Shown here: positions 7,282 to 46,549 of the stretch, piece after piece
How the letters are laid out: the number at the start of each line of letters is the position of its first letter
Position numbering within the stretch: position 1 is the first letter of the stretch
Source of the DNA: an uncultured Candidatus Saccharibacteria bacterium
GTDB lineage: Bacteria > Patescibacteriota > Minisyncoccia > Phycocordibacterales > UBA9973
Assembly: GCA_964573395.1 (NCBI GenBank)
Contig: CAZNJI010000005.1
Location: 7,759-71,758 of the forward strand
Reading direction: 5' to 3'
DNA: 64,000 nt
Notes under the pieces: model-generated
What the model saw: the letters and a program-made list of their open reading frames with translations, nothing else
Told to the model about the DNA's origin: nothing
Databases searched by the model: none
Program-made: the position numbers and the translations under genes

Positions 7282-7698
7282 ATGGTACCTCAAACAACCA
7301 ACCGCCAATACCGCGCGCAGATTATTGATCGCATACTCTCCCAAAGAAAAAAACCGTTTTGTAGCAGGTCAAAAGAGCTTCAACAAAAAGACTGTGTAGA
7401 AGCGATTACACCAGAAGTACTGAAAAGTAGTTACCTGAAAACATTCTCTCTCGGAAAAAACACCATTTTCAAGTTCGGTGGAATCATTCGCCTCTTTAGT
7501 GACGAACGCAAGGCCACCATGTCCATTTCTGAAGAAAGAATCTTATACGGCCTCGAAACAGAGGAAGATTTTATTCAATACTGGGAAACCTGTGCAAAAG
7601 TACATAAGGTTTGGGAACTGACTGAAGATGAGAAAAAAAATATTGAGATGTTCCTCAGAAATCAGCGTGTCGCAGAATCACGCAAGTATGCCGCCTGA
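7282..7698 (+). CDS. Hypothetical protein
   Basis: ORF preceded by a sigma70-like TTGACT..N17..AATATA promoter at about 7236-7268. Confidence 0.4.
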   Translation: MVPQTTNRQYRAQIIDRILSQRKKPFCSRSKELQQKDCVEAITPEVLKSSYLKTFSLGKNTIFKFGGIIRLFSDERKATMSISEERILYGLETEEDFIQYWETCAKVHKVWELTEDEKKNIEMFLRNQRVAESRKYAA

Positions 7699-7747
7699 AT
7701 GAAACAAAAAACCCGGACAAAATTGTCCGGGTTTTCTTTTTAATACA

Positions 7748-8152
7748 TTACCCAATCGGCTGGCCGATGCTTTCGCAGTAGCGAGCGAAGTCGTCGAATT
7801 GGGAACCGAGTTCGCGGGCAAGCTGATCGATTCTTCCTGGGCTCATGCAATCATTCGGGTAGAAGTTAATCGTCCGAGAAGTATTGACGTATTCGTACGA
7901 GGAAGAATTTGTTCGAGTATCATAGTATCCATCATAAACAGTTGCTCGAAGCGTAAAAGGCCGGTAAGAGCGATATTCGTACAGATCACCCAAATGGTTT
8001 CCGGTACGGAAGTCGTGGCCAATAAGCATTCGGTTCGCAACCATCGAGCGGCCAGTTCCGCGAGGAATGGCAATGCCAATAAGCACTCCAATAATGAGGG
8101 CAACAATACCGATAGCGGCAAACAATCCGCGGCTGTTTTGATTCTGTTCCAT
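7748..8152 (-). CDS. Hypothetical N-terminally membrane-anchored protein
   Basis: MEQNQNSRGLFAAIGIVALIIGVLIGIAIP is a single TM segment followed by a Tyr/Arg-rich soluble domain. Start is taken at an internal ATG (8152). Confidence 0.45.
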   Translation of the reverse strand: MEQNQNSRGLFAAIGIVALIIGVLIGIAIPRGTGRSMVANRMLIGHDFRTGNHLGDLYEYRSYRPFTLRATVYDGYYDTRTNSSSYEYVNTSRTINFYPNDCMSPGRIDQLARELGSQFDDFARYCESIGQPIG

Positions 8153-8197
8153 ATATTCGGATACTACCCCTATTTTCTGATTTGGCAAGCGCCGGGC

Positions 8198-8290
8198 AGG
8201 ATTTGAACAGGAAAAAGGTCGGGAAAACACTCTGTTTTCCCGTGAAGGAAGGATTGGGAAAACCGTGGGTTTCCCAGGGGGTTCATATTT
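8198..8290 (-). repeat. tRNA-3'-end-associated two-hairpin module, copy A
   Basis: 8198-8217 is an exact 20-nt direct copy of 8432-8451 (3' end of tRNA-Tyr). It is followed by hairpin gggaaaac-actct-gttttccc and hairpin gggaaaaccgtgggtttccc. Copy B is homologous. Confidence 0.6.
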
Positions 8291-8298
8291 CTGTCTGG

Positions 8299-20289: not shown

Positions 20290-20785
20290 TCGTCCATGCT
20301 CCTAATATAAGCAGCGCTCCGATAAGCGTGTACCAGAACATGCGTTTTGCTTTTTCGATGGTTTCCTTGTTGCCGCGAGCCGTGACGAACAAGAAGCCGG
20401 CGTAAATGAAGAATAGGACGATAAATGGAATGGCAACGGTAAGGATGGCATCCATAATCTTTTTAATCAGTTTTGGAATGGTGTCGGTTTCGCCGAGCGG
20501 ATTTTTCAGTTTGATATCGATTTTTACACTATCAGCAGCAGATGATCCCGATTGCTGGCCAGGAATAGATTCGCTATTGTCGGAGGTAGAGCTGCAATCC
20601 GGGTCAAATGTTGCTCCCGAACCGAAATCCCTCTTACCGTCACCATCGTTGTCATTTCCATCATTACATTCAGTAGTGGTAGATCCCACGGAACCTTGTG
20701 CCATTGCTTTTGGCAGACTACCGACTGCTCCAAGCAAATAACATGACAAGAAAATGGTGAGAAAAAATATTCGCATTAGTTTCAT
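20246..20785 (-). CDS. TrbC/VirB2-like pilin-family protein with an acidic Cys-containing N-region
   Basis: ECNDGNDNDGDGKRDF..DPDC, then IPFIVLFFIYAGFLFVTARGNKETIEKAKRMFWYTLIGALLILGAWTI. Confidence 0.5.
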   Translation of the reverse strand: MKLMRIFFLTIFLSCYLLGAVGSLPKAMAQGSVGSTTTECNDGNDNDGDGKRDFGSGATFDPDCSSTSDNSESIPGQQSGSSAADSVKIDIKLKNPLGETDTIPKLIKKIMDAILTVAIPFIVLFFIYAGFLFVTARGNKETIEKAKRMFWYTLIGALLILGAWTIASAIVTTVNEITG

Positions 20786-20789
20786 TATA

Positions 20790-21191
20790 TCATTCAAAAA
20801 ATCTAAGCCCTGCATCATAGCCGAGCGTTACCATGATCATCTTCACGATGAGCCACGAAGAAAGCACCAAGAGCAGCCCGAGAATCGCCTTCCAAAGCAT
20901 TCCTTTTACTTTTGCATGCACACCCGGATTTCCCTGGGCAGTAATGTACAGATATCCCGCATAGAGCAAAATGAAAACGAAGATAGGAAGTACGAGATAC
21001 TCAATCGACTTTTCAATGAGCGTATTAATAAGAGTTAAGAGATGGCTAAAACCGCAATCATTCGTGCATGGCACCAGGCCAGTATCATTTTGCGCATAAA
21101 CGGAGACAAAAAAACCGCTGAAAAGAAAAAAGAGGGTGAAAGCAGCCAATATGTTAGCGAATAAGGCTTTGCAGGGCGCGGTTTGCTTCAT
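20790..21191 (-). CDS. TrbC/VirB2-like pilin-family protein
   Basis: Signal peptide, VPCTNDCG, then LPIFVFILLYAGYLYITAQGNPGVHAKVKGMLWKAILGLLLVLSSWLIV. Confidence 0.5.
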   Translation of the reverse strand: MKQTAPCKALFANILAAFTLFFLFSGFFVSVYAQNDTGLVPCTNDCGFSHLLTLINTLIEKSIEYLVLPIFVFILLYAGYLYITAQGNPGVHAKVKGMLWKAILGLLLVLSSWLIVKMIMVTLGYDAGLRFFE

Positions 21192-34338: not shown

Positions 34339-34611
34339 AACGGTATCACAAACGATGCTATAATCATCGGGCATTTTTAAAATGCTTAGTTCTTTATGTA
34401 TTAATATTCCCCTGTAGCTTGCGGTGGAGTGAGGCTTGGGATGGGACCCAAGCTGCAAGACCTTTTGAGATAGAATTGAGCATGCGAAAATTATATCCAA
34501 AAGGTGTACAGCTCCTGTAAGGAGGTCGCCGAGGCGACTGCCTACCGCGTAACAATTTATTTTGGCAATCATTAATGATGGTTACCAAATAGAACGTTAC
34601 AAAAAAAATAT

Positions 34612-34976
34612 TCCCCTGTAGCTCAGCGGTAGAGCAGTCGCCTGTAACATGAACAATGTTCAAATAGCAGCTTCCCGATCGAAAGACGGGTCGAAAAACG
34701 AAGTGAATTGACTGGAAATCCTGATCACACAGGATAATCAGCAGCCAAGCCCAGCCGTGAATCCAATAAGTTATTGAACTCACAACTGGGAAGGTTCAGA
34801 GACTATCTCGAAAGAGAGTACTCTCAGCCGTATTTTGTTTATAAAAAAATACGGCTAGGCGGAAGCGCTTCGCACCTTCCCTTTTTATTAAGAATGGTGA
34901 TGATATAGTCCATACCCGCAGTAATGCGAGAATATATGTAAGCGATTGGTCGTAGGTTCGAATCCTACCGGGGGAG
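34612..34976 (+). tRNA. tRNA-Asn(GUU) interrupted in the anticodon loop (between positions 35/36) by a ~293-nt intron-like insert (34646-34938)
   Basis: 5' exon: tcccctg-ta-gctc-agcggta-gagc-a-gtcgc-cugu. 3' exon: uaa-gcgat-tggtc-gtagg-ttcgaat-cctac-cggggga-g. Acceptor 7/7 paired (with U6-G67), and the G73 discriminator is typical of tRNA-Asn. The insert ends in G and contains CAGCCAAG and AGACUA P7-like motifs. Confidence 0.55.
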
Positions 34977-36641
34977 CAAAGTCGAACAAACATCCCTGAA
35001 AATAGGATTTTGTTCCGAAACATCAATGATATTTTCAGGTTCGAACTGTATGTTCTTCTGTTTTGCCGCACTTAGTCCATCAATTAGAGTTTGAAACTCT
35101 TCTGCGTTGGTAATACTCATTTTTTCTTCATTCCAGATAAGGTTCGATTTAAACTTCTTCAAAACAACTCGTTTAGCCTTGGTATCATCTGAAGAAAGAA
35201 CATCCACGAAAGATTGTGTTAAATCAACAATTTCACGCATTCGTATTGACCAATCCTGTCTTTGTATTGATTGCGTTTTAAGCTCAGCAACTTCCCTATC
35301 AATTTTTTCAGCATCTTTTTTGTAATCATCGGGAGAAGTTACACCATCGTTTAAATACTGTCGTGCTCGGTCCTTGCGTGCAAGAAGCTGTTCAAGGTGA
35401 CTTTTTCTTCCTTGTTCAATCGTTACAATGTGCTCTACTTCTCTATCTTTCATTTCTTGAATATTTCTCCTGCACCAATCCGCTAAAGCTGGCGATAGTT
35501 GAAGATTTTCCTTAACGTAGCTGATTAAGTAGTCAGTAATACAAGATTCTTCAATATATCGAGCTTTGAGTTTTTTCTTTCTACGACTGACGTTGTAATA
35601 GTAATGGTATGAGAGGTATTTAGGGCTCTTAATTTCTGCAAGTGTTTTGTTGCATTTAGGGCAACAGTCCTTGTTCTGGTAGGAGAATTTATATTTGCAC
35701 TCGCAAATTAATTGAAGCTTTATATCTGGACCAATAAATTCACCGTAAGGAGATTTAATAAAACCACTATAAGGAGTTAAGTGCTCTTTTGTCTTTGGAA
35801 CACTTCTATCTCCAAGCATTCTGCGTACCTTGTAATGTTCTGCCTCGGTTATCATTCGAGGTAATTCTGGAGCAAGCTCATATCGTTCTCCTCCATAGTA
35901 AAAGAAGCCTGCAAAAATAGGGTCTTTCAAAATTTCATAAATACGTGAGTAAGTAATAAATTTCCCACCAATTCTTTTACTCTTCCGTGTTGTGAACTTA
36001 ACTTCATTTACTGCCCACTCATAGAGCTGTGTTCCGGAATAGCTTCCGGAAAGAAACATACTGAACATCTGTTTGATAATGTTAAACCGATCCTCATCTA
36101 CTAACCACTTCCTATTTCCCTTTTCTTCGCTTCGATCATTTTTAAACCCAAGAGCCGCAAGACCATGTGGGTATCCCATGCTAGCTTTCTTTGCCTGCCC
36201 TCGTTTTACGTTTACCGAAAGATCTCGACTAAACTGATTAGCTGAACCAAATTCAACTGACATAAGGAGTGCATTTTCGTTTGGAAGATATACTTTAGTA
36301 GGAGTAATAATTGCTTTGATGATTCCTTTTTGAAGTAAGTCTATTATGAGCCCTCCATCAACCATGTTTCGAGCAAGACGGTCCAATTTCCAGCAGATAA
36401 TTGCATTGATTTTTCCCTCATGTAGGTCTTTAATCATTCGCTTATAAATCTCACGCTCTCCGGCAAAATGTGCCGATTTTGCTTCTTCATACAATTCTGA
36501 CTTCACTATTTCCCAATATGAAATTAGACGCTCTGCCTCTTCCTTTTGGGCTGGAATTGAAAGGACCTGTTTTTCTTCAGATTCTTGCGATTTCCTACAA
36601 TAAATTCCTGGAATTAAATCTTTTATTTGGTTCCTGTCCAT
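34965..36641 (-). CDS. Large serine recombinase (site-specific integrase)
   Basis: Resolvase catalytic domain (IYCRKSQESEEKQ..S, KLDRLARN), a recombinase domain, and a Zn-ribbon CECKYK..CCPKC. The last 4 codons overlap the tRNA-Asn T-arm/acceptor. Confidence 0.9.
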   Translation of the reverse strand: MDRNQIKDLIPGIYCRKSQESEEKQVLSIPAQKEEAERLISYWEIVKSELYEEAKSAHFAGEREIYKRMIKDLHEGKINAIICWKLDRLARNMVDGGLIIDLLQKGIIKAIITPTKVYLPNENALLMSVEFGSANQFSRDLSVNVKRGQAKKASMGYPHGLAALGFKNDRSEEKGNRKWLVDEDRFNIIKQMFSMFLSGSYSGTQLYEWAVNEVKFTTRKSKRIGGKFITYSRIYEILKDPIFAGFFYYGGERYELAPELPRMITEAEHYKVRRMLGDRSVPKTKEHLTPYSGFIKSPYGEFIGPDIKLQLICECKYKFSYQNKDCCPKCNKTLAEIKSPKYLSYHYYYNVSRRKKKLKARYIEESCITDYLISYVKENLQLSPALADWCRRNIQEMKDREVEHIVTIEQGRKSHLEQLLARKDRARQYLNDGVTSPDDYKKDAEKIDREVAELKTQSIQRQDWSIRMREIVDLTQSFVDVLSSDDTKAKRVVLKKFKSNLIWNEEKMSITNAEEFQTLIDGLSAAKQKNIQFEPENIIDVSEQNPIFRDVCSTLLPR

Positions 36642-37009
36642 AATTGGTTATCTATATTATTTTAACTCATTTTTACGTAGCACCCGACCTTTCTGCCTAT
36701 AATGCATGGCATACCGATAATTTATGTAACAATCTAGGTATAAATACTGACGGCCTCTGCCCTAGAACTCCTGCATATGGTTCATTCTCTGAAGTTCCCT
36801 CTCTTAGGCATCATATTTATTGACCATATGAGGTGCTTATTAATGGGCTGGGTGCGGTGTAGGTCGTCGAAACGCATTATTCCCAGCTTTCACATAAACA
36901 CCCCATGTAGCCTTCATTTTCGTGTACATTGACCAATGTACCTTATTAAAGCGGTGTCTTTTTATCGCGAGTATTCACCAAAGTTCGCTGTGTAGATTGA
37001 ATTGTCGAA

Positions 37010-37225
37010 TCATTTTTTTTCCTGTTTAATAGACTCAACAAATAATGTAAGTAGAAAATCACCGATATTATTTATATCTGTATCAGATAGTTTTTGTGCG
37101 CCAGAATGACCTATTTCGTTTTGTAAGACAAAACGTAAATCATCAATCGCTTTTTGACTTAATCTTCTTATCTCTTCCACTGTTGTGTGCCTATTAAATA
37201 AACACAGAACAAAAAAGCCGAGCAC
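37010..37225 (-). CDS. Hypothetical small protein
   Basis: ORF followed by terminator 37211-37252 (aaaaaagccgagc..gctcggctttttt). Confidence 0.3.
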   Translation of the reverse strand: MLGFFVLCLFNRHTTVEEIRRLSQKAIDDLRFVLQNEIGHSGAQKLSDTDINNIGDFLLTLFVESIKQEKK

Positions 37226-37514
37226 CTAATATTAGGTTGTCTCGGCTTTTTTGTAAGGGAATACAACCTAGGTTAAATTAGGTTATATTCCCTTAGAGAA
37301 ATAAGGAAACGTTGCACTGTTCTATAACTCGAATCGCTGTTTCTTGATGGTCACATAAAGCGCCCTCACAAGTTGCTAGAATTTGACTTTAAAAGTTCTG
37401 TAGCAAAACACCCACCACAACTGTAAGGTATTGGAGTACATATTGTTGTGAGGGATGTTTTACTCTCCAATACCTAATTTTATTTTAGTAAATAAAAATC
37501 AAATTGTCTATAAG

Positions 37515-37530
37515 TTGATTTAGAAATCAA
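37515..37530. promoter_or_regulatory. Palindromic site TTGATTTAGAAATCAA (copy 1)
   Basis: Identical 16-mer with 7-bp inverted arms, repeated at 38304. Confidence 0.4.
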
Positions 37531-37544
37531 GAAATCAAGTTTAA

Positions 37545-37691
37545 TTAATCCTCAAAACCACCTAATAAAGCGATTATTATTCCCATAACAACAAGTGAAG
37601 CAATCGCTGTCCAGAAACCGCCCATTAATAATGCAATGATAAAAACAATTACGGCTAATATTCTCATGAATATATGAATAAAAAACTTCAT
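37545..37691 (-). CDS. Tiny hydrophobic protein (48 aa, below track cutoff)
   Basis: Manual translation: MKFFIHIFMRILAVIVFIIALLMGGFWTAIASLVVMGIIIALLGGFED. Confidence 0.3.
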   Translation of the reverse strand: MKFFIHIFMRILAVIVFIIALLMGGFWTAIASLVVMGIIIALLGGFED

Positions 37692-37693
37692 TT

Positions 37694-37924
37694 TTAATCT
37701 TTCTTAACCAAACTATATTCCTTCGGTTTCTTTCCAGTAATCTTATGAATTACTTTATTAGCGATAGTACATCCAATTACTACAGCAATGATTAAAGGTA
37801 TAAGTCCTTGAACAATAAGACCATTAACAATACCTATTACAATCAAAACAATAAATAACCCAACAATATAAGCAATGATTATTCTTCCTGTACTAGGCTT
37901 CTTAATATTTAACTCTTCATTCAT
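37694..37924 (-). CDS. Small membrane protein (2 TM)
   Basis: 76-aa ORF adjacent to the tiny hydrophobic ORF. Confidence 0.4.
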   Translation of the reverse strand: MNEELNIKKPSTGRIIIAYIVGLFIVLIVIGIVNGLIVQGLIPLIIAVVIGCTIANKVIHKITGKKPKEYSLVKKD

Positions 37925-38303
37925 AGTTTAATTTTTTGTTTAAAAACAATAAAACATTCTTTTAATAATTAAATGGGTTTTTGTATATAAAACGCAAAAA
38001 GCCCAACACGAAGGTGGTAGCTTGCGCTACCCATACCAGTTTCCCGGTATGACCAGTGACGGCAGACCCTTCGATGTTGGGTTCTTTGCACGTCACTGGT
38101 TTTTCTTCACCATGCCAGCCCTAGGGGCTGGTTTAGGCTACTTCGCTAAGTATTACACGAAAATATGAAGTTTTCTACAGATAGGTTTAAAAACCCAAAA
38201 ACCCAAGAAATCCATATTTTCTTAGGTAGATAAGAGTCCGGTTTTTAAACCGGAAAACCCGATATTTTGGTTTAAAAACCAAAAAAACAATAACCCTTAA
38301 AAA

Positions 38304-38319
38304 TTGATTTAGAAATCAA
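38304..38319. promoter_or_regulatory. Palindromic site TTGATTTAGAAATCAA (copy 2), 36 bp upstream of the 38356 operon
   Basis: Exact repeat of the 37515 site. Confidence 0.4.
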
Positions 38320-38355
38320 TTAATCAGAAATTGGCTTGTAAACACAAATATAGCT

Positions 38356-39273
38356 ATGATGCCAAATATGGAAAACTCTCCCACCCCTAAAACAATGTTT
38401 ACTGATACATTTCCTGATGATATTACGTCTGACGAAGAATTAGATGTTATAAAAGCTCAATATCCAGATTACGATGATTATTATGTGGCGAGTGGTTCCA
38501 TTAAGGAACGTAGAGAAAGTTTTGATGCAATGTATCAAATATACGCTCCTTATGCCGATAAACACTTTCTTTCCGATCTAAAAAAGCATTTCCATGAACG
38601 AACATGGGAAATGTATATTGGATATACCCTAATAAAAAATGGTGTCTCATTTACATCCACAAATAAAGGACCAGATATTCTTATTGAAACACCTGAAGGG
38701 AAAATATGGATTGAAGCTGTTGTTTGTAACAGTGGAGATGGCCCAGATCGTGTCCCAGCTATGATATATGGTGTAGCCTCAGATGTACCCGATGATGAAA
38801 TGATTATCAGAATGGCAAATAGCCTTGATGCCAAATTTAAAAAATATCAAAAATATATTAATGAAGATATTGTGTCAGTAGAAGATAAATTAATCATTGC
38901 TGTAAACGCCGGTATTTTTAGCCACGTAGTTGATGGAGATATGCCACTTATTCTAAAAGCAATTTTTGCTATCGGATTCCGAACATTATCATTACCAATC
39001 GACGGAAAAGGACCAGTAAAACCAGGGATCTCGACTAGAAATTTTATTGAAAAGAAAAATGGAAGCAAGGTTGCAACCACTTTCTTTTTAGAAAAAGAAC
39101 ATGCTTCAATTAGTGCTGTTTTATATACCAGTAGAACAGTGCTTAATCAAGATGAGCCAGCTGGGACTAATATAATGGTAGTTCGTAATCCAATAGCTAC
39201 TAATCCTCTCCCGGATGATGCGTTCCCATTTATGCATCAAATTATTACTAAAGGAGGCATTATAGAATTATGA
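38356..39273 (+). CDS. Hypothetical protein (possible PD-(D/E)xK-like nuclease), first gene of a 3-gene operon
   Basis: 305 aa with GPDILIETPEGKIWIEAVV resembling a D..ExK core. Its stop overlaps the next start (ATGA). Confidence 0.45.
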   Translation: MMPNMENSPTPKTMFTDTFPDDITSDEELDVIKAQYPDYDDYYVASGSIKERRESFDAMYQIYAPYADKHFLSDLKKHFHERTWEMYIGYTLIKNGVSFTSTNKGPDILIETPEGKIWIEAVVCNSGDGPDRVPAMIYGVASDVPDDEMIIRMANSLDAKFKKYQKYINEDIVSVEDKLIIAVNAGIFSHVVDGDMPLILKAIFAIGFRTLSLPIDGKGPVKPGISTRNFIEKKNGSKVATTFFLEKEHASISAVLYTSRTVLNQDEPAGTNIMVVRNPIATNPLPDDAFPFMHQIITKGGIIEL

Positions 39274-40268
39274 AAACCTGCATTTATTGTAGATCGCAGA
39301 ATCAATCTTTATTTAAAGGGGTTGAGCATCTTATACCCCAAAGTTTTGGTACTTTCAGCTCTGAGACTCCAACGTTAAAATGTGTTTGTGATGAGTGCAA
39401 TGCTTTCTTTGCAAAAGAACTCGACCAAATACTTGCTCGTGACAGCTGGGAAGGTGTAGAGAGATACAAAAAAGGAATTAAATCCAGAGAACAAAGACCT
39501 ATTAAGAGACTAAAATTTAGTCTCGAAAATACCCCAGAAATGGGCGAATTTGGCGGAATGGTTTTTGAAGGTGTTGATGCTACTACAGGAAAATTACTAC
39601 ATCCGAAAGGGCAATTTCATATAAAAAACATTAAAACTAAAAAATTTGATGTCTTCTTTACAGATGCAATAAAAAATATAAAACTTGATGATGAAACGTA
39701 TGGAGTAAAAGGCACGAGAGAAACAAAAATATTTGCAAATTCTGAAGAAGAACACCAAGCTGTTTTTGATGAAGTAAGAAAAATTATTCCGACTTATAAA
39801 ATAAAAGAAAAATTTCAACCTCCATTTATTCAAGGTAGAAAAGATGATGAAGTAATTGAACTTCCAATTTGGATTGAGGGAACTATTGATCATCCTATAA
39901 AAAGAGGATTAATAAAGATTCTTCTAAATTTTTCAGCTTACTATATTGGAAATGAAGAAGTTCTTAAGTCGGAATGGGATAAAGCAAGAGACTACGTTAG
40001 ACTTAATTCAGAACCAATCTTGGGTAAAGCTGATACTAAACCTTTCTGGGGAGATGAAACAGAAGTAATGCGTCTCCCAAATGATAGCTTTAATATTCTT
40101 GTTGAGAATAAAGGTAAAGATGTAATAGGAAAAATCCAAATATATAATTTTTATACCCACACCTTTATTCTCGCTGAGAATCACAGTATTCCTATAGGAA
40201 AAGAAAAAGCTATGCGCTTTACTAAAGGAAAACCTCCATACCGCGCAGAAAAAAGAACAGTGTTTTAA
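39270..40268 (+). CDS. HNH endonuclease-domain protein
   Basis: N-terminal CIYCRS..FKGVEHLIPQSFG HNH motif plus a second Cys pair CVCDEC. Confidence 0.65.
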   Translation: MKTCIYCRSQNQSLFKGVEHLIPQSFGTFSSETPTLKCVCDECNAFFAKELDQILARDSWEGVERYKKGIKSREQRPIKRLKFSLENTPEMGEFGGMVFEGVDATTGKLLHPKGQFHIKNIKTKKFDVFFTDAIKNIKLDDETYGVKGTRETKIFANSEEEHQAVFDEVRKIIPTYKIKEKFQPPFIQGRKDDEVIELPIWIEGTIDHPIKRGLIKILLNFSAYYIGNEEVLKSEWDKARDYVRLNSEPILGKADTKPFWGDETEVMRLPNDSFNILVENKGKDVIGKIQIYNFYTHTFILAENHSIPIGKEKAMRFTKGKPPYRAEKRTVF

Positions 40269-40302
40269 ATATTAATTAAAAACCACCTTTTTAGTTATTT
40301 TT

Positions 40303-40980
40303 ATGAAGCTACTAGAAATATTTAATACTCGGGAATTAGCGACAATAGTATGGGTCATTATTTTATTTGTATATCTTATCCGAAAACCAGAAATTCGCTC
40401 TAGTTTACTGCGATTTTTAAAAAGTGTTTTTAAATTATGGAAAATAGTGCTTAGCATGATTATCTACATCATTTTCTGTATTTTTATTTTGCACAAAATG
40501 TCGTTCTGGAATATGGATTTACTTAAATTAACAATTTTTTGGTTTTTTGGTTGGGCTTCTGTAATGTTTATAAACCTCAACGATATACAAAAAAATAAAA
40601 GTTACCTCAAAAAAGTACTAGTTAATATTTTAGGGTTAACAGTTGTTATTTCATTTATCACAAATTTCTATACATTTCCCTTTATAGCTGAACTGATCCT
40701 TTTACCAATCATTACGATCCTTTTAGTATTCACAGTTATGCCTCAAATTAAAGGCAACCTAAAAGTAAATAGACTCATAAACCAAGTACTAATTGTTTTT
40801 GGACTTATTGTATTAGCTATTAATATAAAGAGAGTAATATGTAATTTCCAAACTTTCTCCTCTATGAACACTCTACTAGAATTTCTTCTACCAATAATCC
40901 TATCCTTAATGTTTTTACCGTATCTTTATTTACTATTCCTTTATTCAGAATGTGAACAAAAGAAAATAAAGGGTAAATAA
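40303..40980 (+). CDS. Polytopic membrane protein (about 6 TM), probably co-transcribed with the HNH gene
   Basis: Hydrophobic throughout; 34-nt gap from the upstream gene. Confidence 0.5.
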   Translation: MKLLEIFNTRELATIVWVIILFVYLIRKPEIRSSLLRFLKSVFKLWKIVLSMIIYIIFCIFILHKMSFWNMDLLKLTIFWFFGWASVMFINLNDIQKNKSYLKKVLVNILGLTVVISFITNFYTFPFIAELILLPIITILLVFTVMPQIKGNLKVNRLINQVLIVFGLIVLAINIKRVICNFQTFSSMNTLLEFLLPIILSLMFLPYLYLLFLYSECEQKKIKGK

Positions 40981-41039
40981 TATTCCGAAGATCTGTACAT
41001 AAGGCGGAGTTCTTCTGGTAATTTGTTACAATCTAACCT

Positions 41040-41801
41040 ATGCCAACAGAGGCTCATTTTACGCTATACCTCGATGAAACTGGGGATCATCTTCTTTACT
41101 CAGAGGAAGAATACCTTCAAAATTCAGAACTAGAAAGTCATTGTACTCTCTTAGGCTACATCCTTCAAAATGACGTTAAGCCTATTGTAAAAGAAGGACT
41201 CAAAGCCTTGAAAAGAGAATTTTGGAAGACGGATGAAGTTATATTACATAGTGTAAAGATACGTCATAAACAAGGATGCTTCGCTTTGTTTCATTACATA
41301 CCTGAAATGTATGAGAAATTTAAGGTTCGATTAATGGAGATTATTAAACTATCTAACCCCGTGATTGTATGTAGTTCACTAGACAAGCGATTATGGATTA
41401 AAAAATATCCAAGGAAATACTACTTTAAAGACGATCCTTATGATCAGGCATTTATTTTTCTTCTGGAAAAATATGCGCGTTTTCTTAACGATCAGAAATA
41501 CGACAAAGTGGTTGGTCGAATATCTGTTGAAAAAAGAGATCCCGCCAGAGACAAATCGCTAAGAGAGACATATACGAGCGTAAAGAGAAATGGTACTCAA
41601 TTTCGCAATAAAAACTTTTTCGATAAACTCTCGGATAAAATGGATTTTGACAGTAAAGGATTCAATATTCCCGGTTTGCAATTGAGTGACTATTGTTCAT
41701 ATCCTTTTTATATAAACCATAAATTTCCTACTCGAGATAATAAATTATATGAACTACTTAAGACATATATTTATAACTGTGGACATAAAAAATGGCCCTA
41801 A
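41040..41801 (+). CDS. DUF3800-like protein
   Basis: N-terminal LYLDETGD resembles the DUF3800 signature (hydrophobic-YIDESG); 253 aa. Confidence 0.5.
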   Translation: MPTEAHFTLYLDETGDHLLYSEEEYLQNSELESHCTLLGYILQNDVKPIVKEGLKALKREFWKTDEVILHSVKIRHKQGCFALFHYIPEMYEKFKVRLMEIIKLSNPVIVCSSLDKRLWIKKYPRKYYFKDDPYDQAFIFLLEKYARFLNDQKYDKVVGRISVEKRDPARDKSLRETYTSVKRNGTQFRNKNFFDKLSDKMDFDSKGFNIPGLQLSDYCSYPFYINHKFPTRDNKLYELLKTYIYNCGHKKWP

Positions 41802-41944
41802 AAAACACAAAAGAGCTCGTATTGAGCTCTTTTGTGACCCCTCATTCGAAGGGAAAATATCACTGAATGATACCTTTTAATTATATATTAAAGAACAATC
41901 TTGTATACATAGTTATTAACAGTCCATCAACGTTCGGAACAAAC

Positions 41945-42451
41945 TCAATGGATAGAAATAAAACCATCATCATAATGCTCTTTAAATTTAATTAAGTTAG
42001 TGTCATCAAGTTTGTTTTGAGAAATATACAATTTTGCCGCCTCGATTATGTCTTTACAAAATGTATGAATATTGATTATCATTTTTCGTGGCTGTATAAC
42101 TCCTTTATTATAATTACCTCCCAAATAACCGAAATGAGATGAACTTTTTTCCGTTAAAACCACAAATTTATCAAAAACGTCCTTAAAATACTTCTCATCT
42201 TGAGTTGTTACATCGTCAGTTCCCTGGTGTAGAGCAGCACATCGAAAAGCCCAACAAATTTTCCCGGGAATGCCTCTACTTGCATATGTAGGCATATTTT
42301 CGTTAAACCATTGTATATATTTCTCTCCTAAACCCCTCTTTCCTTCTTTTATTGAAACGCATATATCTGGAATTGTTAAGGCAATAAATAATGCTCCGAA
42401 GAAGGCTTTATTTTCTAAACATATCTCAATTGAATCACCCAATTCATTCAT
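41945..42451 (-). CDS. Hypothetical protein (downstream gene of a 2-gene operon)
   Basis: 168-aa ORF, 3 nt after the upstream gene. Confidence 0.4.
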   Translation of the reverse strand: MNELGDSIEICLENKAFFGALFIALTIPDICVSIKEGKRGLGEKYIQWFNENMPTYASRGIPGKICWAFRCAALHQGTDDVTTQDEKYFKDVFDKFVVLTEKSSSHFGYLGGNYNKGVIQPRKMIINIHTFCKDIIEAAKLYISQNKLDDTNLIKFKEHYDDGFISIH

Positions 42452-42454
42452 AAA

Positions 42455-42817
42455 CTAAGATTTAACTATCTTCTTTTTTATTGAATCAACAAATAGGCGG
42501 AATGCAGGACGGTTCTCTTTATCGTAAATAATCTTTACTCCCAGTAAGTGGCCTTTATCACAAGAGAGATCTTTTTTTGAGATAGAAACTTTTGGCTCAA
42601 TAATCCTATCATGGTACATACGGCGAAGATTGCCTGGACCATCTTTTTGATAGTGGCAAATGTGAGCTCCGCATTTCTCGCATGAGATAGCGAGCAGCCG
42701 GGAGTACCCGCCTCTTACCTTCTTATATCGATCATTCTTGAAGCTATTCTTTTTCACGTCGTGAGTATAGCATTCCGAACATCCTCCAACGTTCGGAGCC
42801 ATCAAAAAACAGCTCAA
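42455..42817 (-). CDS. Hypothetical Zn-ribbon protein
   Basis: CSEC..CEKCGAHICH Cys/His cluster; 120 aa. Confidence 0.4.
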   Translation of the reverse strand: MSCFLMAPNVGGCSECYTHDVKKNSFKNDRYKKVRGGYSRLLAISCEKCGAHICHYQKDGPGNLRRMYHDRIIEPKVSISKKDLSCDKGHLLGVKIIYDKENRPAFRLFVDSIKKKIVKS

Positions 42818-42871
42818 ATACAGGGCTGTTTTTTGTTGCCCCAGTAGGGTTCAGAACTCAAATTTGTTACT

Positions 42872-43582
42872 ATGATAGTAATGAAAAAGTTTATTATTTA
42901 CACACTACTGTCAGTATGTCTTCTCATAGTATGCGGATATGGTTTGCTTCAAGTTAGCAAATCCCGCACCTTTCAATTCTTTGGTAGCATTGTAAGTCGG
43001 GTTGATACTGAAGAAAAAGTAATTGCCCTTACATTTGATGATGGACCAGAAAGTTATACCAATGAGATATTGAGTGTGCTTAAAAAGAAACAAGTAAAAG
43101 CTACGTTTTATGTAATTGGTGAGAGATTGCAAGAAAACTTAGAGATTGGAAAACGTATTACAGACGAAGGCCACGAATTAGGTAATCACTCGTATACTCA
43201 TCAGCGATTTTTATTCAAATCACAATCCTTTATTGATAGCGAGATACAAAGAACTAATCAACTTATTCGTGAGACAGGATATGGAGGAGCTATCACGTTT
43301 CGCCCGCCATATGGGAAAAAACTATTCGGGCTTCCGTGGTATCTAAATAAACACAACATTGAAACCATTATGGTTGATGTTGAACCCGATACCTATGGAA
43401 CAACATCCGACTTTTTTGTTGAATATACAGTTGCTAATACAAAAGCGGGTTCTATTATTTTGCTTCATCCATTCTGTGAGACCTGCATCGAACAAAGAAA
43501 AGCTGTTCCACTCATAATAGATGCACTAAAGGAAAAGGGTTATACCTTTGTTACTGTTTCTGAGCTACTTTCTAAAAGATAA
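42872..43582 (+). CDS. Polysaccharide deacetylase (NodB-homology domain)
   Basis: TFDDGPESYT.., ATFYVIG.., GHELGNHSYTH motifs; N-terminal TM. Confidence 0.8.
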   Translation: MIVMKKFIIYTLLSVCLLIVCGYGLLQVSKSRTFQFFGSIVSRVDTEEKVIALTFDDGPESYTNEILSVLKKKQVKATFYVIGERLQENLEIGKRITDEGHELGNHSYTHQRFLFKSQSFIDSEIQRTNQLIRETGYGGAITFRPPYGKKLFGLPWYLNKHNIETIMVDVEPDTYGTTSDFFVEYTVANTKAGSIILLHPFCETCIEQRKAVPLIIDALKEKGYTFVTVSELLSKR

Positions 43583-43595
43583 GTTTAGAGAAATC

Positions 43596-43702
43596 AGTTC
43601 TGAAGTTTTGCCTCAGGAAATATCTCAAAAATCTTAGAAAACTCAATATCTCTTTTGATTGCAGTCCAGTTGAGAGTTCTGAACTCGTCCACTAGAGGGA
43701 GC
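43596..43702 (+). repeat. Conserved ~107-bp intergenic repeat R1 (cassette-boundary-like)
   Basis: tAGTTCTGAAGt ..ctcaaaaatcttagaaaactc.. gAGTTCTGAACtcgtccac-agagggagc. Four copies lie in the island. Confidence 0.7.
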
Positions 43703-43708
43703 AAATAT

Positions 43709-43736
43709 TTGACTTATTTATATTTTATGCTATTAT
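43709..43736 (+). promoter_or_regulatory. Sigma70-like promoter after R1 (TTGACT-16-TATTAT)
   Basis: Seen in sequence; conserved with the promoter after R3. Confidence 0.55.
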
Positions 43737-43885
43737 AAAAATAATAGTGTTCTTTGTTGTTTTTATAGGTTCATAGCTAAAAGTTACTTAAAACTTTAGG
43801 TATTTTTTAGCTATGACCACGGTGGTCTAGTTCCCGCTTACGGACAGTAAGCAAAAACGGGCTATCAGCCTATAAATAAATCAAT

Positions 43886-44521
43886 ATGAAATACAACGAG
43901 TTTAACCTCGGTCAGATTGAAGCTGTCTTCAACAAGCTTGGAGGAGTATACGGTGTAAAACGTTTTCTCTCTGGTCAAACGGAAGTAAGAGCAATTCCTA
44001 AAAGCTTTCTCTGGTGGAAAAAAGTTACTATAGGAAAATTTAATTCTATAGGAGAAGTGTGGCGGGCGCTTACTGAAAAAGGTGTGGAATTAAAAGAAGG
44101 TATTCCATATGGCTCCAAAAAATGTGCCCTACGACATCGCTCGGTAACTATGTTAAACAGCCCATTGTTTACCCTAGCCAAGGTAGAAGAAGAAATCGAA
44201 CTTGTATCAGTAAAATTAAAAGATTTAGGTTTCGTAGATAGTGGTTTTGTACCAAAAAAGGAAGTTCTTAAATGGGCTTCACAAATTGGATTAGAACCCT
44301 GTCCTGCAGAAGTAGTAATTGACCTGCTTTTAAATCACCAACTCGAAGAAACAAGAAGAAAAGATGTTCAAATTGTGATGGAACCTATACGTGTCGCAGA
44401 TGACCATCTGAACTTCAGGTTAAGAGAAGATGGTGGGTGTGGGGCGTTACTTTTAGATTGGGATGTTTCTGATAAATTTTCCGACTTTGAGTGTTACGTA
44501 TTTCGTTTAGTAAACAAATAA
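43886..44521 (+). CDS. Hypothetical protein (cassette gene)
   Basis: 211-aa ORF followed by terminator hairpin cctcacgca..tgtgagg-tttttt (44531-44562). Confidence 0.5.
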   Translation: MKYNEFNLGQIEAVFNKLGGVYGVKRFLSGQTEVRAIPKSFLWWKKVTIGKFNSIGEVWRALTEKGVELKEGIPYGSKKCALRHRSVTMLNSPLFTLAKVEEEIELVSVKLKDLGFVDSGFVPKKEVLKWASQIGLEPCPAEVVIDLLLNHQLEETRRKDVQIVMEPIRVADDHLNFRLREDGGCGALLLDWDVSDKFSDFECYVFRLVNK

Positions 44522-44562
44522 CAAAACAAGACCTCACGCAATAACTATGTGTGAGGTTTTTT

Positions 44563-44669
44563 AGTTCTGAAGTATCATCAAAGGAAATACCTCAAAAATC
44601 TTAGAAACTTCTAAATCTCTTTTAATTGCAACCCAGTTAAGAGTTCTGAACTCGTCCACGAGAGGGAGC
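44563..44669 (+). repeat. Intergenic repeat R2
   Basis: Same architecture as R1. Confidence 0.7.
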
Positions 44670-44783
44670 CATTTTTTGAAGCTTATTTCGTAACAGTTAA
44701 TTTTGATACCCAAATAGGGTTCAGAACTTTACATAAGAAAAGCCCGCCATTACTGACGAGCTTTTTTTGTTTTTAATCGTTGA

Positions 44784-45140
44784 TTACTTGGTTTGCAACT
44801 TCCACACTTTTGATGTTTCCATTACATTACCTTTCCTTGTGCGTGTATTGTAATAAAATGCACGCTTCTCGGATTTACCCTCATCAACTGAGTTAGGTAA
44901 TCCTTGAATAAGGAACTCTCCAATCCAACTTTCACCTGAACCATCTTCAGGACCTGCGAGATGCACGGTAGCATTAAACTTTTTCCCAATATCCATTGTG
45001 CTTTTTATAGCGCTGGTGTTAATGGAGAACTGGATTGTCTTTTTATCAAAAAGACTGGCTTGTAGGTCATACTTCGATGGACCATTTGTGATTGCACATA
45101 ATCCTTCAGGAAGTAGTGCTGTTTTGGATGTGATTACCAT
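44784..45140 (-). CDS. Hypothetical protein (cassette gene)
   Basis: 118-aa ORF. Confidence 0.4.
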   Translation of the reverse strand: MVITSKTALLPEGLCAITNGPSKYDLQASLFDKKTIQFSINTSAIKSTMDIGKKFNATVHLAGPEDGSGESWIGEFLIQGLPNSVDEGKSEKRAFYYNTRTRKGNVMETSKVWKLQTK

Positions 45141-45263
45141 AACGATAATTGTTTATTTTGAAGAACAGTGAGGTTACGACCCTCGATTACGTTGCTGAAT
45201 AACTCAGTCTTGTTTACATTGTAGCATACTACAAGATAAATGTCAATATATAGCCAATTTACT

Positions 45264-45370
45264 AGTTCTGAAGTGCCATCATCGGAAACATCTCAAAAAT
45301 CTTAGAAAACTCCAATTCCCTTTTGATAGCAACCCAGTTAAGGGTTCTGAACTCGTCCACTAAAGGGAGC
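45264..45370 (+). repeat. Intergenic repeat R3
   Basis: Same architecture as R1. Followed by a TTGACT-17-TATTAT promoter at 45377-45405. Confidence 0.7.
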
Positions 45371-45526
45371 TAATACTTGACTTTTCTATATTTTTATGCT
45401 ATTATATATTTGTAATAGTACTTTGAGATACTTGGTTATTTAATGTTGATTTTGTTGGGTTTTCTGTGTTCCCTGCTTGGGATTATAGACAACTCAATAA
45501 TTTCTAACAATTAAATAAACAAAAAA

Positions 45527-46000
45527 ATGAACAGTTATCAAAAAAGTGAAAGGGTTACAAAAATCCTTTCTATATTTTCAATTGTGTCGTTTGTTATCGC
45601 CATTATTTCGTTTGTAATTTATGCCTTCGTTGGACGAAAAACATTCGACACTATCGCCGTGACTGGTTTAACAGCGTTCATGCTGCCCATTCTGGTGCTG
45701 CAAGTCGCCATGCCAGCAAACTTCCACATCTTTGGAACAAAAGGTATAGGGATCCCCTGGTCGCTATTTTTCTTCCTGTTTATATTCCCGTTCGCTGACC
45801 TGTGGTTCTTCTCTGGGTTAAGCACTTTATTCAACATTATTCCTGATTATCACTCTGTGATGAACGGATCAATGAAAGAACTGGTGCGTAATCAAGCCAT
45901 GACAGAAGCATGGACATACATCGGGAGTATATATGTGGGACTAATTAGTATCGGCCTGCTGTTAAGAAAAAAACAAAAAGAAAAAATTGTTCTGGGATAA
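45527..46000 (+). CDS. Hypothetical membrane protein (cassette gene)
   Basis: 157 aa with 4 predicted TM. Terminator at 46021-46051. Confidence 0.45.
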   Translation: MNSYQKSERVTKILSIFSIVSFVIAIISFVIYAFVGRKTFDTIAVTGLTAFMLPILVLQVAMPANFHIFGTKGIGIPWSLFFFLFIFPFADLWFFSGLSTLFNIIPDYHSVMNGSMKELVRNQAMTEAWTYIGSIYVGLISIGLLLRKKQKEKIVLG

Positions 46001-46054
46001 CAAACAACCCGCCAACACGGAAACCCGTTCGTTGAGCGGGTTTTCTTTTTGTTT

Positions 46055-46161
46055 AGTTCTGAAGTACTACCACTGGCAACAACTCAAAAATCTTTGAAAA
46101 CTCCAAATCTCTTTTGATGGCAGTCCAATTCAGAGTTCTGAACTTGTCCAAGAGAGGGAGC
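46055..46161 (+). repeat. Intergenic repeat R4
   Basis: Same architecture as R1. Confidence 0.7.
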
Positions 46162-46549
46162 AAAGTAAAAAAGACCTTTTCAGGTCTTAGGTTGATACCC
46201 GCTCCATTTAGTTTTACTTCTTGCATTTAGCACGATGACGCGGACAAGAAAACTGCTTGGAACTAAAAAAACTTCGCGAACAGTTAAAAGTCCCTCTATT
46301 TTATAATAGTCGGAGCGACTGCCTCAACTAAAAACAAACTTTTGCTTTAACTATAGGAGAGTTTGAACCTATAGCATCCCCAAGGATTAACTTTGCTTGG
46401 AGAACCACAAATTTTTAAGCGGATACCGTTCTTGGTATGTATTCTCTCTTCTTCATTATACTAGCACGTTCCCCCCCCCGCCGAATGGCAGGATAAACTC
46501 CAATGTTCAGAGCTCCTAAAAATCTTAAACCAGCAACACTGCGTTGGCC

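Follow-up and report, generated by a model that had tools for sequence, protein, structure and literature searches.

The 3' ends of tRNA genes are the classical targets of tyrosine integrases, and serine integrases usually land inside protein genes. Integrative and mobilizable elements show the same target habit for their tyrosine and serine recombinases (PMC5704250). Several described systems come close to the locus studied here. The "suicidal" integrases of the SSV type are tyrosine recombinases and have been stated to be exclusive to Archaea (PMC8371274; PMC7253208). In the mycobacteriophages BPs, Brujita and those of cluster P, the attachment site attP lies in the 3' end of a phage gene, and a switch of C-terminus sets the genetic switch (PMC4557955). 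Cis-mobilizable elements (CIMEs), known from ICESt1/ICESt3 and the streptococcal tRNA-Lys islands, are decayed elements that have no recombinase left but still have attachment (att) sites; they accumulate in tandem at the 3' end of a target gene and are in principle mobilisable in cis by a functional neighbour (PMC5704250). Canonical large serine recombinases (LSRs) without a directionality factor recombine only attP with attB (PMC3783163). The locus considered here lies in 64,000 nt of contig CAZNJI010000005.1 from an uncultured Candidatus Saccharibacteria bacterium; this whole stretch is called the window, and positions are counted from its first base. It contains a tRNA-Asn gene, an LSR gene that ends inside this tRNA gene and, further downstream, four direct repeats of 107 nt (R1-R4) that separate single genes. 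We propose, with a probability of roughly 0.78, that the repeats are the 3'-terminal 35 codons of an LSR gene together with the P arm of its attP, that integration at tRNA-Asn splits the recombinase gene, and that R1-R4 are older, stacked scars.

The original prediction, made from the letters of the window, had described four conserved repeats of about 107 nt separating small genes, and this description was confirmed by the repeat search, the alignment and the covariance model. The repeat search in the window gave a direct-repeat family of four members (43590-43712, 44557-44679, 45258-45380 and 46049-46171), with 77-82% identity to the reference copy and spacings of 967, 701 and 791 nt. When aligned, they form an indel-free unit of 107 nt, AGTTCTGAAGT...GGGAGC, with unrelated flanks, and the 17-mer GTTCTGAACTCGTCCAC inside it has 4 matches at 3 or fewer mismatches in the window, where 0.09 are expected. 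A sequence-only covariance model built from 24 copies detected just R1-R4 in the 64 kb (E-values from 8e-33 to 3e-31, the next best being 0.05). The GC content is 34-37% in all four units and in the resident recombinase-bearing element before them, from 34978 to about 46161, compared with 47-49% in the host, which indicates a foreign origin of the element and the units. A near-palindrome had been placed at both ends of the repeat; there are indeed two such words, but the second, AGTTCTGAACT, sits 25 bp inside the 3' end. The singleton half-sites were found as well (GGGTTCAGAACT, at 42847 and 44717).

Read on the minus strand, each copy is an open frame of 35 codons (LPLVDEFRTLNW..IKRDLEFSKIFE..LQN and a stop), with the consensus LPLVDEFRTLNW[TA/VQ]IKRD[IL]EFSKIFE.FP...LQN(S) and the stop codon exactly at the unit boundary. 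The frame is open in 24 of 24 aligned copies, and the other two minus-strand frames are full of stops. The column entropy in the 24-copy alignment is 9.7, 4.8 and 13.3 for codon positions 1, 2 and 3, and 23 synonymous alternatives occur in the open frame against 14 and 12 in the others. In the larger set of distinct near-full-length copies the frame is kept open in at least 79 of 85; these copies are nearly free of indels, and almost all have a length of 110-114 nt. Upstream of the conserved LPL (or LLL) nothing is conserved, and in 4 of the 24 copies a stop codon is found within two codons. A conserved N-terminal extension is lacking in these copies, which are therefore detached 3' ends of a gene. 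Over 26 divergent fragments the F, R and W of FRTxNW are nearly invariant.

Related loci from genomes and metagenomes are given L numbers in the following, and related proteins P numbers. The genome loci come from 185,579 species-representative genomes, which were scanned for the two least variable blocks of the repeat at their fixed spacing; this gave 22 stretches, 18 of them true copies. The true copies belong to metagenome-assembled genomes (MAGs) of Patescibacteria type (Saccharibacteria, Paceibacteria, Minisyncoccia and Nomurabacteria), except for one labelled Cytophagales.

The gene from which these 3' ends come is that of an LSR. The database fragments P0001 and P0002 carry the peptide of the repeat, hereafter the tail, directly after the C-terminal region of a recombinase, and an exhaustive HMMER search with P0002 collected 817 relatives of this region. 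The C-terminus of full-length relatives reads ...LRGxDSNxRP, a tRNA T-arm in reverse translation, while the tail is found on short fragments. As GAT TCG AAC is the reverse complement of the tRNA T-loop, the genes of the full-length relatives run into tRNA genes. The point at which members of the family begin to diverge is exactly W-L-[P/R], encoded by TGG CTC CCN, the reverse complement of the tRNA acceptor and CCA end. The metagenome scan recovered L085, L045, L041 and L030, whose recombinase genes are intact, the body leading directly into the tail. The recombinase of the window itself matches the Pfam families Resolvase (1.2e-16) and Recombinase (6.4e-07), to which the L041 enzyme adds Zn_ribbon_recom (1.2e-09). 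It ends in ...CSTLLPR, and its codons ACT TTG CTC CCC overlap the tRNA. There are 396 close relatives of the window gene. Of the 120 closest proteins in its subfamily (identity of 45-57%), about 95 terminate within a tRNA gene; P0185, P0197 and P0214 (592-601 aa) continue from ...STLLP into LLDAFRTANWKKIKRDLEVF...LQN and the stop, i.e. ...STLLP followed by LLDAFRTANW...; and about 20 of the 120 carry a second, shorter type of tail that ends in ...LLRTWDDVRKAIIDSS. The att core thus lies 15-35 codons before the stop in intact genes, and integrated copies are without the tail. All recognisable domains are retained in the tail-less protein.

Two further observations concern this gene. In the intact genes of L041, L045 and L030, with the tails of the window also considered, the coding strand of the 3' region has the word TTCAGAAC at three places (in LLQNPTV, in DEFRTLNW and in the terminal ..LQN), and the terminal occurrence, in an otherwise variable stretch, hints at a constraint at the DNA level, possibly extra binding sites, over a protein constraint. 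Also, many C-terminal fragments (among them P0002, P0003 and P0004) start sharply at ITKDxYDKK after unrelated sequence, which is the N-terminus of a C5 DNA methylase in P0004, and P0096 and P0105 have an internal deletion junction at the same point. This suggests a second recurrent breakpoint inside the recombinase gene.

The different states of the attachment site can be seen in the related loci. L041 is 7,304 bp long, contains an intact recombinase with its tail, and has an exact 37-nt terminal repeat, from which we conclude that it is a circular element in the attP state; its cargo is a type II restriction-modification pair and an AntA-like gene. In L085 and L060 the tail and the cargo are 99% and 98% identical to those of L041, and the sequence left of GGCTCCC is unrelated. 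L041 on one side and L085 and L060 on the other thus show attP and attR of one element; no single contig held both the attL and the attR of its integration. The attL state, in which the end of the gene overlaps tRNA-Asn, is represented by L034, L037 and the window. When L034 and L037 are compared with L030, a gene body of the L030 subfamily runs into tRNA-Asn, the switch lying at GCTC. The homology switch fell within GCTC/GGCTCCC in three independent comparisons, and the bases after GAGC vary among copies, so that the core is very short. One of the three is a three-way junction of L109 (an intact P0181 gene of attP type), the attL of the window and R0, a further tail in the window that is described below; the partners switch at GCTC. 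As for the target, 8 of 18 genome loci and 8 of the 30 metagenome loci scanned have a tRNA-Asn(GTT) gene of the same orientation upstream, and the only other tRNA near the scanned loci is tRNA-Ala, seen twice.

The two partners differ in the position of a half-site word. In LSRs, the motif bound by the zinc-ribbon domain is shifted inward by 5 bp in attB relative to attP (PMC3783163). Counted from the C of GAGC, 23 of 24 tails have the start of the TTC-N-GAA word at 25 bp, and all 17 tRNA-Asn genes have it at 20 bp, a comparison that was made for the P and B arms, the P' and B' arms being less clear; in R0 the word TTCCGAA lies 26 bp from the core. Since the offset of 25 against 20 bp is the published one, the repeat behaves as a P arm and the T-arm and acceptor of the tRNA as a B arm. 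The half-site word is at the same time coding, because D-x-[FV]-R-[TN] of both tail types is encoded by it (GAG TTC AGA ACT in type 1 and GAT GTT CGG AAT in type 2), and protein and DNA constraints would overlap at this word. A separate case is the first 16,285 nt of L045 (1-16285 of contig Ga0209727_1000002, 647 kb), a perfect tandem repeat of 10,151 bp with 100% identity over 6,134 nt. Its internal junction holds an intact recombinase and tail (6681-8291), and it represents either tandem integrated copies or a circle concatenated by the assembler.

In the window, the attL is formed at the tRNA-Asn(GUU) gene (34612-34976, plus strand), which supplies attB with its B arm. Exon 1 (34612-34645) and exon 2 (34939-34976) are separated by a group I intron of about 293 nt in the anticodon loop (34646-34938), where the Rfam family Intron_gpI matches 34560-34931 with 86.7 bits; the tRNA exons were read by hand, and the 3' half is near-identical to the tRNA-Asn called by ARAGORN in 16 related loci. 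For a group I intron, tRNA-Asn is an unusual host. The Intron_gpI match begins 52 nt before the 5' end of the tRNA, so the exon and intron layout may be more complex, and a 17-nt word, AATATTCCCCTGTAGCT, made of the tRNA 5' end and upstream bases, is duplicated about 205 nt upstream (34403-34419). The core GAGC at 34974-34977 comprises the last acceptor base, the discriminator and the first base of the former CCA, and to its right lies recombinase DNA, the P' arm; the tRNA at present reads GAGCAA and not GAGCCA. The LSR gene (34965-36641, minus strand) is in the integrated, tail-less state: it encodes 558 aa ending in ...DVCSTLLPR, with the last codons and the stop in the 3' end of the tRNA.

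The resident element extends from this attL over 7.8 kb (34978-42801, 34% GC) to a fifth and different att scar, R0, which the original prediction had missed. R0 (42754-42801, minus strand) is a tail of type 2, WLRTLEDVRNAILTT followed by a stop, with the core GGAGCCA at 42795-42801. Its peptide, bounded by stops on both sides (stop, WLRTLEDVRNAILTT, stop), is the sole motif of this kind in the six frames of the window. When R0 is fused to the recombinase body, a protein of about 570 aa results, in which ...DVCSTLL continues into RTLEDVRNAILTT, and this C-terminus nearly matches those of the intact P0181 (571 aa, ...VCPTLLRTWDDVRKAIIDSS) and P0194 (570 aa). R0 is therefore the cognate attR of the resident element. 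R4 had been considered for this role, as it shares the 11-mer GGGAGCAAAGT with attL, but it was dropped because the R0 peptide matches the closest intact relatives. An ORF of 120 aa rich in Cys (42455-42817, minus strand; probable ATG at 42799-42797, MAPNVGGCSEC...) overlaps R0 in a different frame, and so its first 15 or so codons are built from the att scar and the displaced tRNA end. The cargo of the resident element comprises small membrane ORFs, an HNH_5 protein, a DUF3800 protein, proteins of no known kind and a LOOT RNA (RF03000; 38016-38139, minus strand; Rfam 84 bits). LOOT RNAs also lie beside the intact recombinase of L108, which is 48% identical (8136-8255, minus strand, 76 bits; 672-798, minus strand, 54 bits), and this RNA may be cargo or a functional part of this LSR element family.

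These observations can be joined as follows. With a core inside the gene and the acceptor end of tRNA-Asn as its target, integration by attP x attB splits the recombinase gene. The gene body stays at attL, where it gains 2-15 tRNA-derived codons (...LLPR and stop in the window), whereas the tail ends up as attR at the opposite end of the element. The full-length gene would be restored by excision or, in a tandem arrangement, by the tail of a neighbour. R1-R4 would be the attR-type scars of four older, recombinase-less units of one gene each (0.7-1.0 kb), stacked between R0 and the original trailer of the tRNA in the manner of CIME accretion. The units were probably added singly at the tRNA-proximal core, so that the newest is nearest to the tRNA, and the tails may still be usable as alternative attR sites, in which case the element could take along 0-4 of the neighbouring units when it leaves. 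The recombinase may also differ in activity with and without its tail. The junctions observed agree with a path of three steps. An autonomous element integrates by attP x attB; it may then be excised with any downstream tail as attR, which would restore the gene and carry off the intervening units; and the tail-bearing circles could enter an occupied site by an attL x attR-type reaction. By this last step, the tRNA and its trailer would be regenerated at one side and an intact recombinase gene at the other, which is the arrangement found in L108 and L027.

The four units, U4 to U1, lie in this order beyond R0; each ends in a tail and a core, and none encodes a recombinase. After the R0 core comes CCA and then the displaced native trailer of tRNA-Asn (42802-42858, plus strand), consisting of a terminator hairpin (42804-42836) and the T-arm-like motif S1 (CCCCAGTAGGGTTCAGAACT, 42839-42858); this would have been the B' side when the resident element integrated. 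The trailer with S follows tRNA-Asn in L005, L014 and L020 and follows tails in L009 and others, and the block is conserved in L027. U4 (42802-43702) contains this trailer with S1, a polysaccharide deacetylase (42872-43582, plus strand; Pfam Polysacc_deac_1, 3.8e-34) that is also found with a tail in L011 (91% aa identity) and L027 (85%), and R1. R1 (43596-43702, minus strand; stop at 43594-43596, core GAGC at 43699-43702, covariance model score 108.5 bits) is an orphan type-1 tail of 35 codons, LPLVDEFRTLNWTAIKRDIEFSKIFEIFPEAKLQN and a stop. U3 (43703-44669) consists of a promoter, TTGACT-16-TATTAT (43709-43736, plus strand), which drives a 211-aa gene of no assigned family (43886-44521), a terminator (44528-44560) and R2, an orphan type-1 tail of 35 codons (44563-44669, minus strand; core at 44666-44669). 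U2 (44670-45370) begins with a trailer-like flank (44670-44728, plus strand) of the class terminator plus S, in which S2 (ACCCAAATAGGGTTCAGAACT) occupies 44709-44728, and continues with a 118-aa protein on the minus strand (44784-45140) that has no Pfam or PHROG match, and R3, again an orphan type-1 tail of 35 codons (45264-45370, minus strand; core at 45367-45370). Within U2, the block 44701-45370 has 91.5% DNA identity to L024, a Nomurabacteria MAG, where it stands directly after tRNA-Asn. U1 (45371-46161) has a promoter (45377-45405) with a leader of about 125 nt (together 45377-45530, plus strand), which drives a gene for a 157-aa membrane protein (45527-46000), a terminator (46019-46045) and R4 (46055-46161, minus strand; core at 46158-46161), an orphan type-1 tail of 35 codons which is probably the oldest and outermost scar. 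Beyond R4, a native-type trailer (46162-46230, plus strand) with AAAGT, a run of A, a hairpin (46171-46188) and a degenerate S-like stretch is followed by sequence of host GC content. The window is part of a bacterial chromosome, and the flanks of the whole island carry the housekeeping genes topA, relA/spoT, parB, infB, clpB, gyrA, hisS, pth, lepB and pyk. Eight tRNA genes on both strands lie at 5.5-15.6 kb of the window, and two adjacent host proteins (18481-20289 and 20246-20818, both minus strand) have C-terminal T4SS_pilin domains.

The almost identical promoters that had been noted after R1 and R3 were found again as TTGACT-16-TATTAT at 43709-43736 and TTGACT-17-TATTAT at 45377-45405. 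Each matches in 10 of 12 positions and has an upstream TG, and the pattern TTGAC-N13-16-TGCTATNAT occurs only at those two places in the window, with 0 expected. The U1 promoter and leader are 73-86% identical in L008, L010, L015 and L028 and 67% in L009, all unrelated loci, with different genes behind them, and they could represent a shared regulatory leader; a shorter conserved word of the 5' leader, GTAGTTCTTTGATAT, follows a TATGCTATCAT -10 box in many cassettes. Each repeat had also been said to follow the terminator of a gene. This holds for R2 and R4, but R1 starts 13 nt past the stop codon of the deacetylase gene, and R3 comes after the 5' end and promoter of a minus-strand gene. Motif S, CCCnnnTAGGGTTCAGAACT (variant GTAGAAGTTCGAACCT), lies about 35-50 bp right of the core, after the terminator, and is present behind both tRNA-Asn and tails; the degenerate S motif of the window is at about 46195-46225, and S resembles the tRNA T-arm and a word in the middle of the tail. 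It was considered as a B' half-site, as a coding relic of LQNPTV and as a relic of the tRNA T-arm, and none of these fits a distance of about 45 bp from the core.

Arrays of this kind are not restricted to the window. With the covariance model, 105 tail copies were found in 99 related loci, co-oriented within each locus, and the largest arrays have 6 tails (L098) and 5 tails (L107, which ends at tRNA-Asn). A search for the same repeat with different cargo in other genomes had been proposed as a check on the original prediction, and the result agrees with it: the 39 inter-tail intervals, or cassettes, have a median of 914 bp and usually one ORF, and no two of the cargo proteins are alike. Cargo ORFs are co-oriented with the tRNA in 30 of 36 cases. 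Their domains include cyclase, NUDIX, HD, 2'-5' RNA ligase, hydrolase, kinase and response-regulator domains, and about three quarters are without a Pfam match. The sequence right of the core was tallied by regular expression for 91 distinct tails, giving 16 with recombinase body, 13 with promoter and 62 others. An approximate sorting by eye distinguishes, beside the 16 recombinase bodies and a few decayed ones, about 16 flanks with the conserved promoter TTGACw-N17-TATGCTATcAT, about 20 with a terminator (the native trailer) and about 16 with a terminator plus the S motif. The same class of promoter stands directly after tRNA-Asn in L007, L017 and L019. In L108, an intact recombinase gene is completed by the tail of the cassette next to it, and five more tails follow; the block R0-core-trailer-S-deacetylase-R1 is conserved as one piece in L027, beside a similar element. 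On the other hand, no circular composite of element and units was observed in the loci compared. Exact-protein look-ups for close strains returned short Logan contigs that break at the repeats, among which there was no empty site or variant array; and loci of the same species (L023/L063/L064/L065, L020/L107 and L088/L091) are identical over their overlap, with no polymorphism of cassette gain or loss. A blastn search with R1 of the INPHARED phage records gave no match. Several elements carry cargo of defence type: an N6/N4 methylase and an MvaI/BcnI nuclease in L041, an OLD-like TOPRIM/AAA protein and SduA_C in L108, and SocA_Panacea, a methylase and a ResIII helicase in L027. Elements of this LSR family are small mobile defence islands in Patescibacteria.

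We now weigh the other readings of the repeats. The original prediction had compared them with VCR-type attC sites, the Vibrio cholerae repeats, which amounts to a chromosomal integron or a cluster of attC sites lacking integrases (CALIN), with repeats that fold as bulged hairpins of single-stranded DNA (ssDNA) and with IntI encoded elsewhere. Repeats every 0.7-1 kb around single genes, mostly in one orientation and with very diverse cargo, agree with this, and since 64 kb of the genome are visible, IntI could be elsewhere. The repeats, however, do not fold like attC. Compared with dinucleotide shuffles, R1-R4 gave no significant fold on either strand, neither as RNA (z from -0.65 to +1.22) nor as ssDNA (z from -0.04 to +1.20, computed without a dedicated attC covariance model); such folding had been named as a check for each repeat. 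For 24 copies, RNAalifold found 0 compensatory pairs, at -5.3 kcal/mol and with a covariation contribution of -0.37. The R''/R' inverse core (GTTRRRY) is not present in the repeats, whose ends are direct copies of GTTCTGAA and not RYYYAAC...GTTRRRY. Between bacterial classes the copies still have 85% identity, whereas in attC sites it is the structure and not the sequence that is conserved. U3 and U1 each start with a promoter of their own, and a cargo gene on the opposite strand has its own 11/12 promoter, whereas integron cassettes are generally promoterless and use a common Pc. Moreover, the arrays are anchored at tRNA-Asn and not at intI/attI, and the repeat is coding and, in intact genes, joined without a break to a serine recombinase. 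The earlier statement that no IntI-like tyrosine recombinase is encoded holds for the 64-kb window, though not for the whole genome: among its 40 ORFs no member of the Pfam family Phage_integrase was found, and the sole recombinase is the LSR. An integron is thus highly improbable here. What stands of the earlier interpretation is that recombination-site repeats delimit single-gene cassettes beside a site-specific recombinase, while its integron and attC assignment does not. The serine recombinase, which the prediction had named only as the nearest one, belongs to the family that makes these sites, even though its own tail, R0, is of another type. The absence of folds and of compensatory pairs bears equally on a multi-copy structured small RNA or cis-regulatory RNA that would be spread across Patescibacteria between terminators and promoters. 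The sharp boundaries, the high conservation across classes and the terminator that follows some copies would suit an RNA, and two hairpins drawn by hand in the repeat stay paired through G-U/A-U changes; these hairpins were dropped because they vary only through one-sided changes of this type. No Rfam 15 family matches the repeats at the gathering threshold or even at E<=10, the variation tracks codon periodicity on the opposite strand, and the sequence is the C-terminal coding region of intact genes, so we regard an RNA as very unlikely. A tRNA-derived pseudogene was also tried, on account of the T-arm-like GTTCTGAAC and the ...GGGAGCA end, and rejected, as the acceptor complementarity fails and the spacing differs; the likeness of the repeat to a tRNA is better explained by the similarity of P arm and B arm.

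The repeats are intergenic, short and present in several copies, and the GTTC-N-GAAC words close to their two ends could mimic terminal inverted repeats. This is what a dispersed repeat transposed by chance into intergenic sites would show, similar to repetitive extragenic palindromes (REP) or miniature inverted-repeat transposable elements (MITE). We give this reading next to no credence: there are only four copies in 64 kb, all in one 2.6-kb array; elsewhere the copies cluster downstream of tRNA-Asn and always in one orientation (105 copies, 99 loci); and they have no target-site duplications, a right boundary that is the tRNA acceptor core, and continuity with a recombinase ORF in intact genes. 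The open frame itself could instead mean that every repeat is a small gene in its own right, which converges with the gene upstream of it and encodes a protein of 32-57 aa such as a toxin, an antitoxin or a regulator. The frame is open in nearly all copies, GTG, TTG or ATG is often the fourth codon (LPL-V), and a TATAAT lies on the minus strand upstream of R1. However, neither a start codon nor a Shine-Dalgarno sequence is conserved, and some copies have CTG, GGG or TTA as the fourth codon. In 4 of 24 copies an in-frame stop precedes LPL/LLL by no more than two codons, and the sequence upstream is not conserved. A plus-strand promoter starts 6-7 nt from the end of the conserved block, and the peptide is the C-terminus of recombinases of 537-601 aa. 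A small gene of this kind is hardly plausible.

Our proposal that the repeats are split-off LSR gene ends has its own difficulties, which concern mainly how the arrays came about. The att states were all inferred from assemblies of different samples, and no recombination was observed. Under the rule that only attP x attB recombine, repeated insertion at an occupied tRNA, which is an attL, is unexplained. To the right of the R1 and R3 cores lies a promoter that bears no likeness to the P' arm of the recombinase body, so that a complete attP is not obvious in the units on this side. The block in common with L024 begins not at the R2 core but at S2, 32 nt further right, a boundary that homologous exchange would explain at least as well as a site-specific insertion would. 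The distance of the S motif from the core is unlike that of an LSR half-site. The IMG/VR viral contigs gave no match to the DNA pattern or in two protein-based scans. Finally, the AlphaFold2 model of P0185 is confident for the body, but in the tail the predicted local distance difference test (pLDDT) score is 60 and falls to 37, so the model is uninformative there and supports no particular function of the tail. A serious alternative for the array dynamics therefore accepts the tails as proposed and has the arrays built by RecA-dependent homologous recombination through tRNA-Asn and the tails, with the orphan tails as passive scars. Tails from different hosts have 80-90% identity along their 107 nt, a length sufficient for exchange, and canonical LSRs should not integrate into attL or attR (PMC3783163); the start of the L024-shared unit and the promoter-type right flanks, without a P'-like half-site, point the same way. 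But 91 distinct copies of the tail have a sharp right boundary at the core, with flanks that fall into four recurrent classes, the tail-core-body junctions of L108 and L027 give in-frame genes, as site-specific joining predicts, and the frame retention in at least 79 of 85 copies is unexpected for passive scars unless these are very young. We hold this alternative to be improbable on balance, and still the strongest of those considered.

One may go further and regard the 3' end of the LSR gene as both a state sensor and a cassette-capture device, which would make the system a tRNA-anchored, serine-recombinase functional analogue of the integron in the reduced genomes of Patescibacteria. We offer this extension tentatively and think it rather doubtful. 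As a state sensor, the full-length, tail-bearing enzyme would be made only from a free circle or a tandem junction, and it would integrate; the integrated copy would give a tail-less, tRNA-tagged enzyme that could be excision-competent without a separate directionality factor, or silent. For cassette capture, every orphan tail would be a reusable attR and a "spare last exon", and would stay intact for this reason; its pairing with attL would complete the gene and take the intervening units along. Tail-bearing circles would enter an occupied tRNA-Asn by an attL x attR-type reaction, whereby an intact tRNA with its trailer and an intact recombinase gene are regenerated.

The findings matter in several respects. 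LSRs are leading tools of genome engineering, and the setting of their directionality is a central question. A natural LSR family whose C-terminus differs between the free and the integrated state is a test case for it. The tRNA-Asn locus of Patescibacteria is a widespread and recognisable hotspot for single accessory genes and small defence islands (restriction-modification, OLD/Shedu-like), and the 107-nt tail is a simple sequence marker for such hotspots. For annotation, many short "hypothetical proteins" and "recombinase, partial" calls in MAGs of the candidate phyla radiation are att scars. Our literature search found no description of this arrangement, but most subscription journals were outside its scope and a prior description is possible.

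Compared with known systems, the system is a member of the LSR kind by its domains, its short core and its P/B offset. It has in common with the LSRs of A118/LI, phiC31 and Bxb1 the Resolvase, Recombinase and zinc ribbon domains, a very short core, pseudo-palindromic half-site words, a distal motif that lies 5 bp further outward in P than in B, and hybrid attL and attR sites. It differs in that attP lies inside the recombinase's own 3' coding region, so that integration alters the C-terminus of the protein; in that the target is the 3' acceptor end of a tRNA gene; and in the many tandem attR-type scars, which are not predicted by rules that allow only attP x attB. With the SSV-type suicidal integrases (SSV1, pTN3, pT26-2) it has in common a site inside the integrase ORF, a gene that is split and restored, and a tRNA target. 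It is not a member of this group, as the enzyme is a serine recombinase and the hosts are bacteria (Patescibacteria MAGs, bacterial housekeeping genes in the flanks). Another difference is that only the last 15-35 or so codons are lost and tRNA-derived codons are gained; since the catalytic, recombinase, zinc-ribbon and coiled-coil parts are intact, the tail-less enzyme may still be active. Given that a 2021 review stated this arrangement to be limited to Archaea (PMC8371274), the case extends the range of self-partitioning integrases beyond Archaea to a bacterial serine recombinase family with hundreds of members.

The remaining comparisons concern the altered C-terminus and the array. As in integration-dependent immunity, the integrated and the free form encode proteins with different C-termini; there it is a repressor that is split, by a tyrosine integrase, while here it is the gene of the serine integrase itself. 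As with CIMEs, units without recombination genes are stacked at one target gene, and the R0-trailer-deacetylase-R1 block in common with L027 may reflect movement as a composite. The CIMEs described use tyrosine integrases and identical direct-repeat cores, whereas here the units contain one gene in 0.4-1.3 kb, there are up to six per array, and the repeats are derived from coding sequence. With integrons the system shares an array of single-gene, mostly co-oriented and diverse cassettes, each ending in a site repeat, and one anchor beside the recombinase. In contrast to integrons, the recombinase belongs to the serine superfamily, the anchor is a tRNA gene, sequence and not structure is conserved, some cassettes have promoters of their own, and the sites would act as double-stranded half-sites and not as folded single strands.

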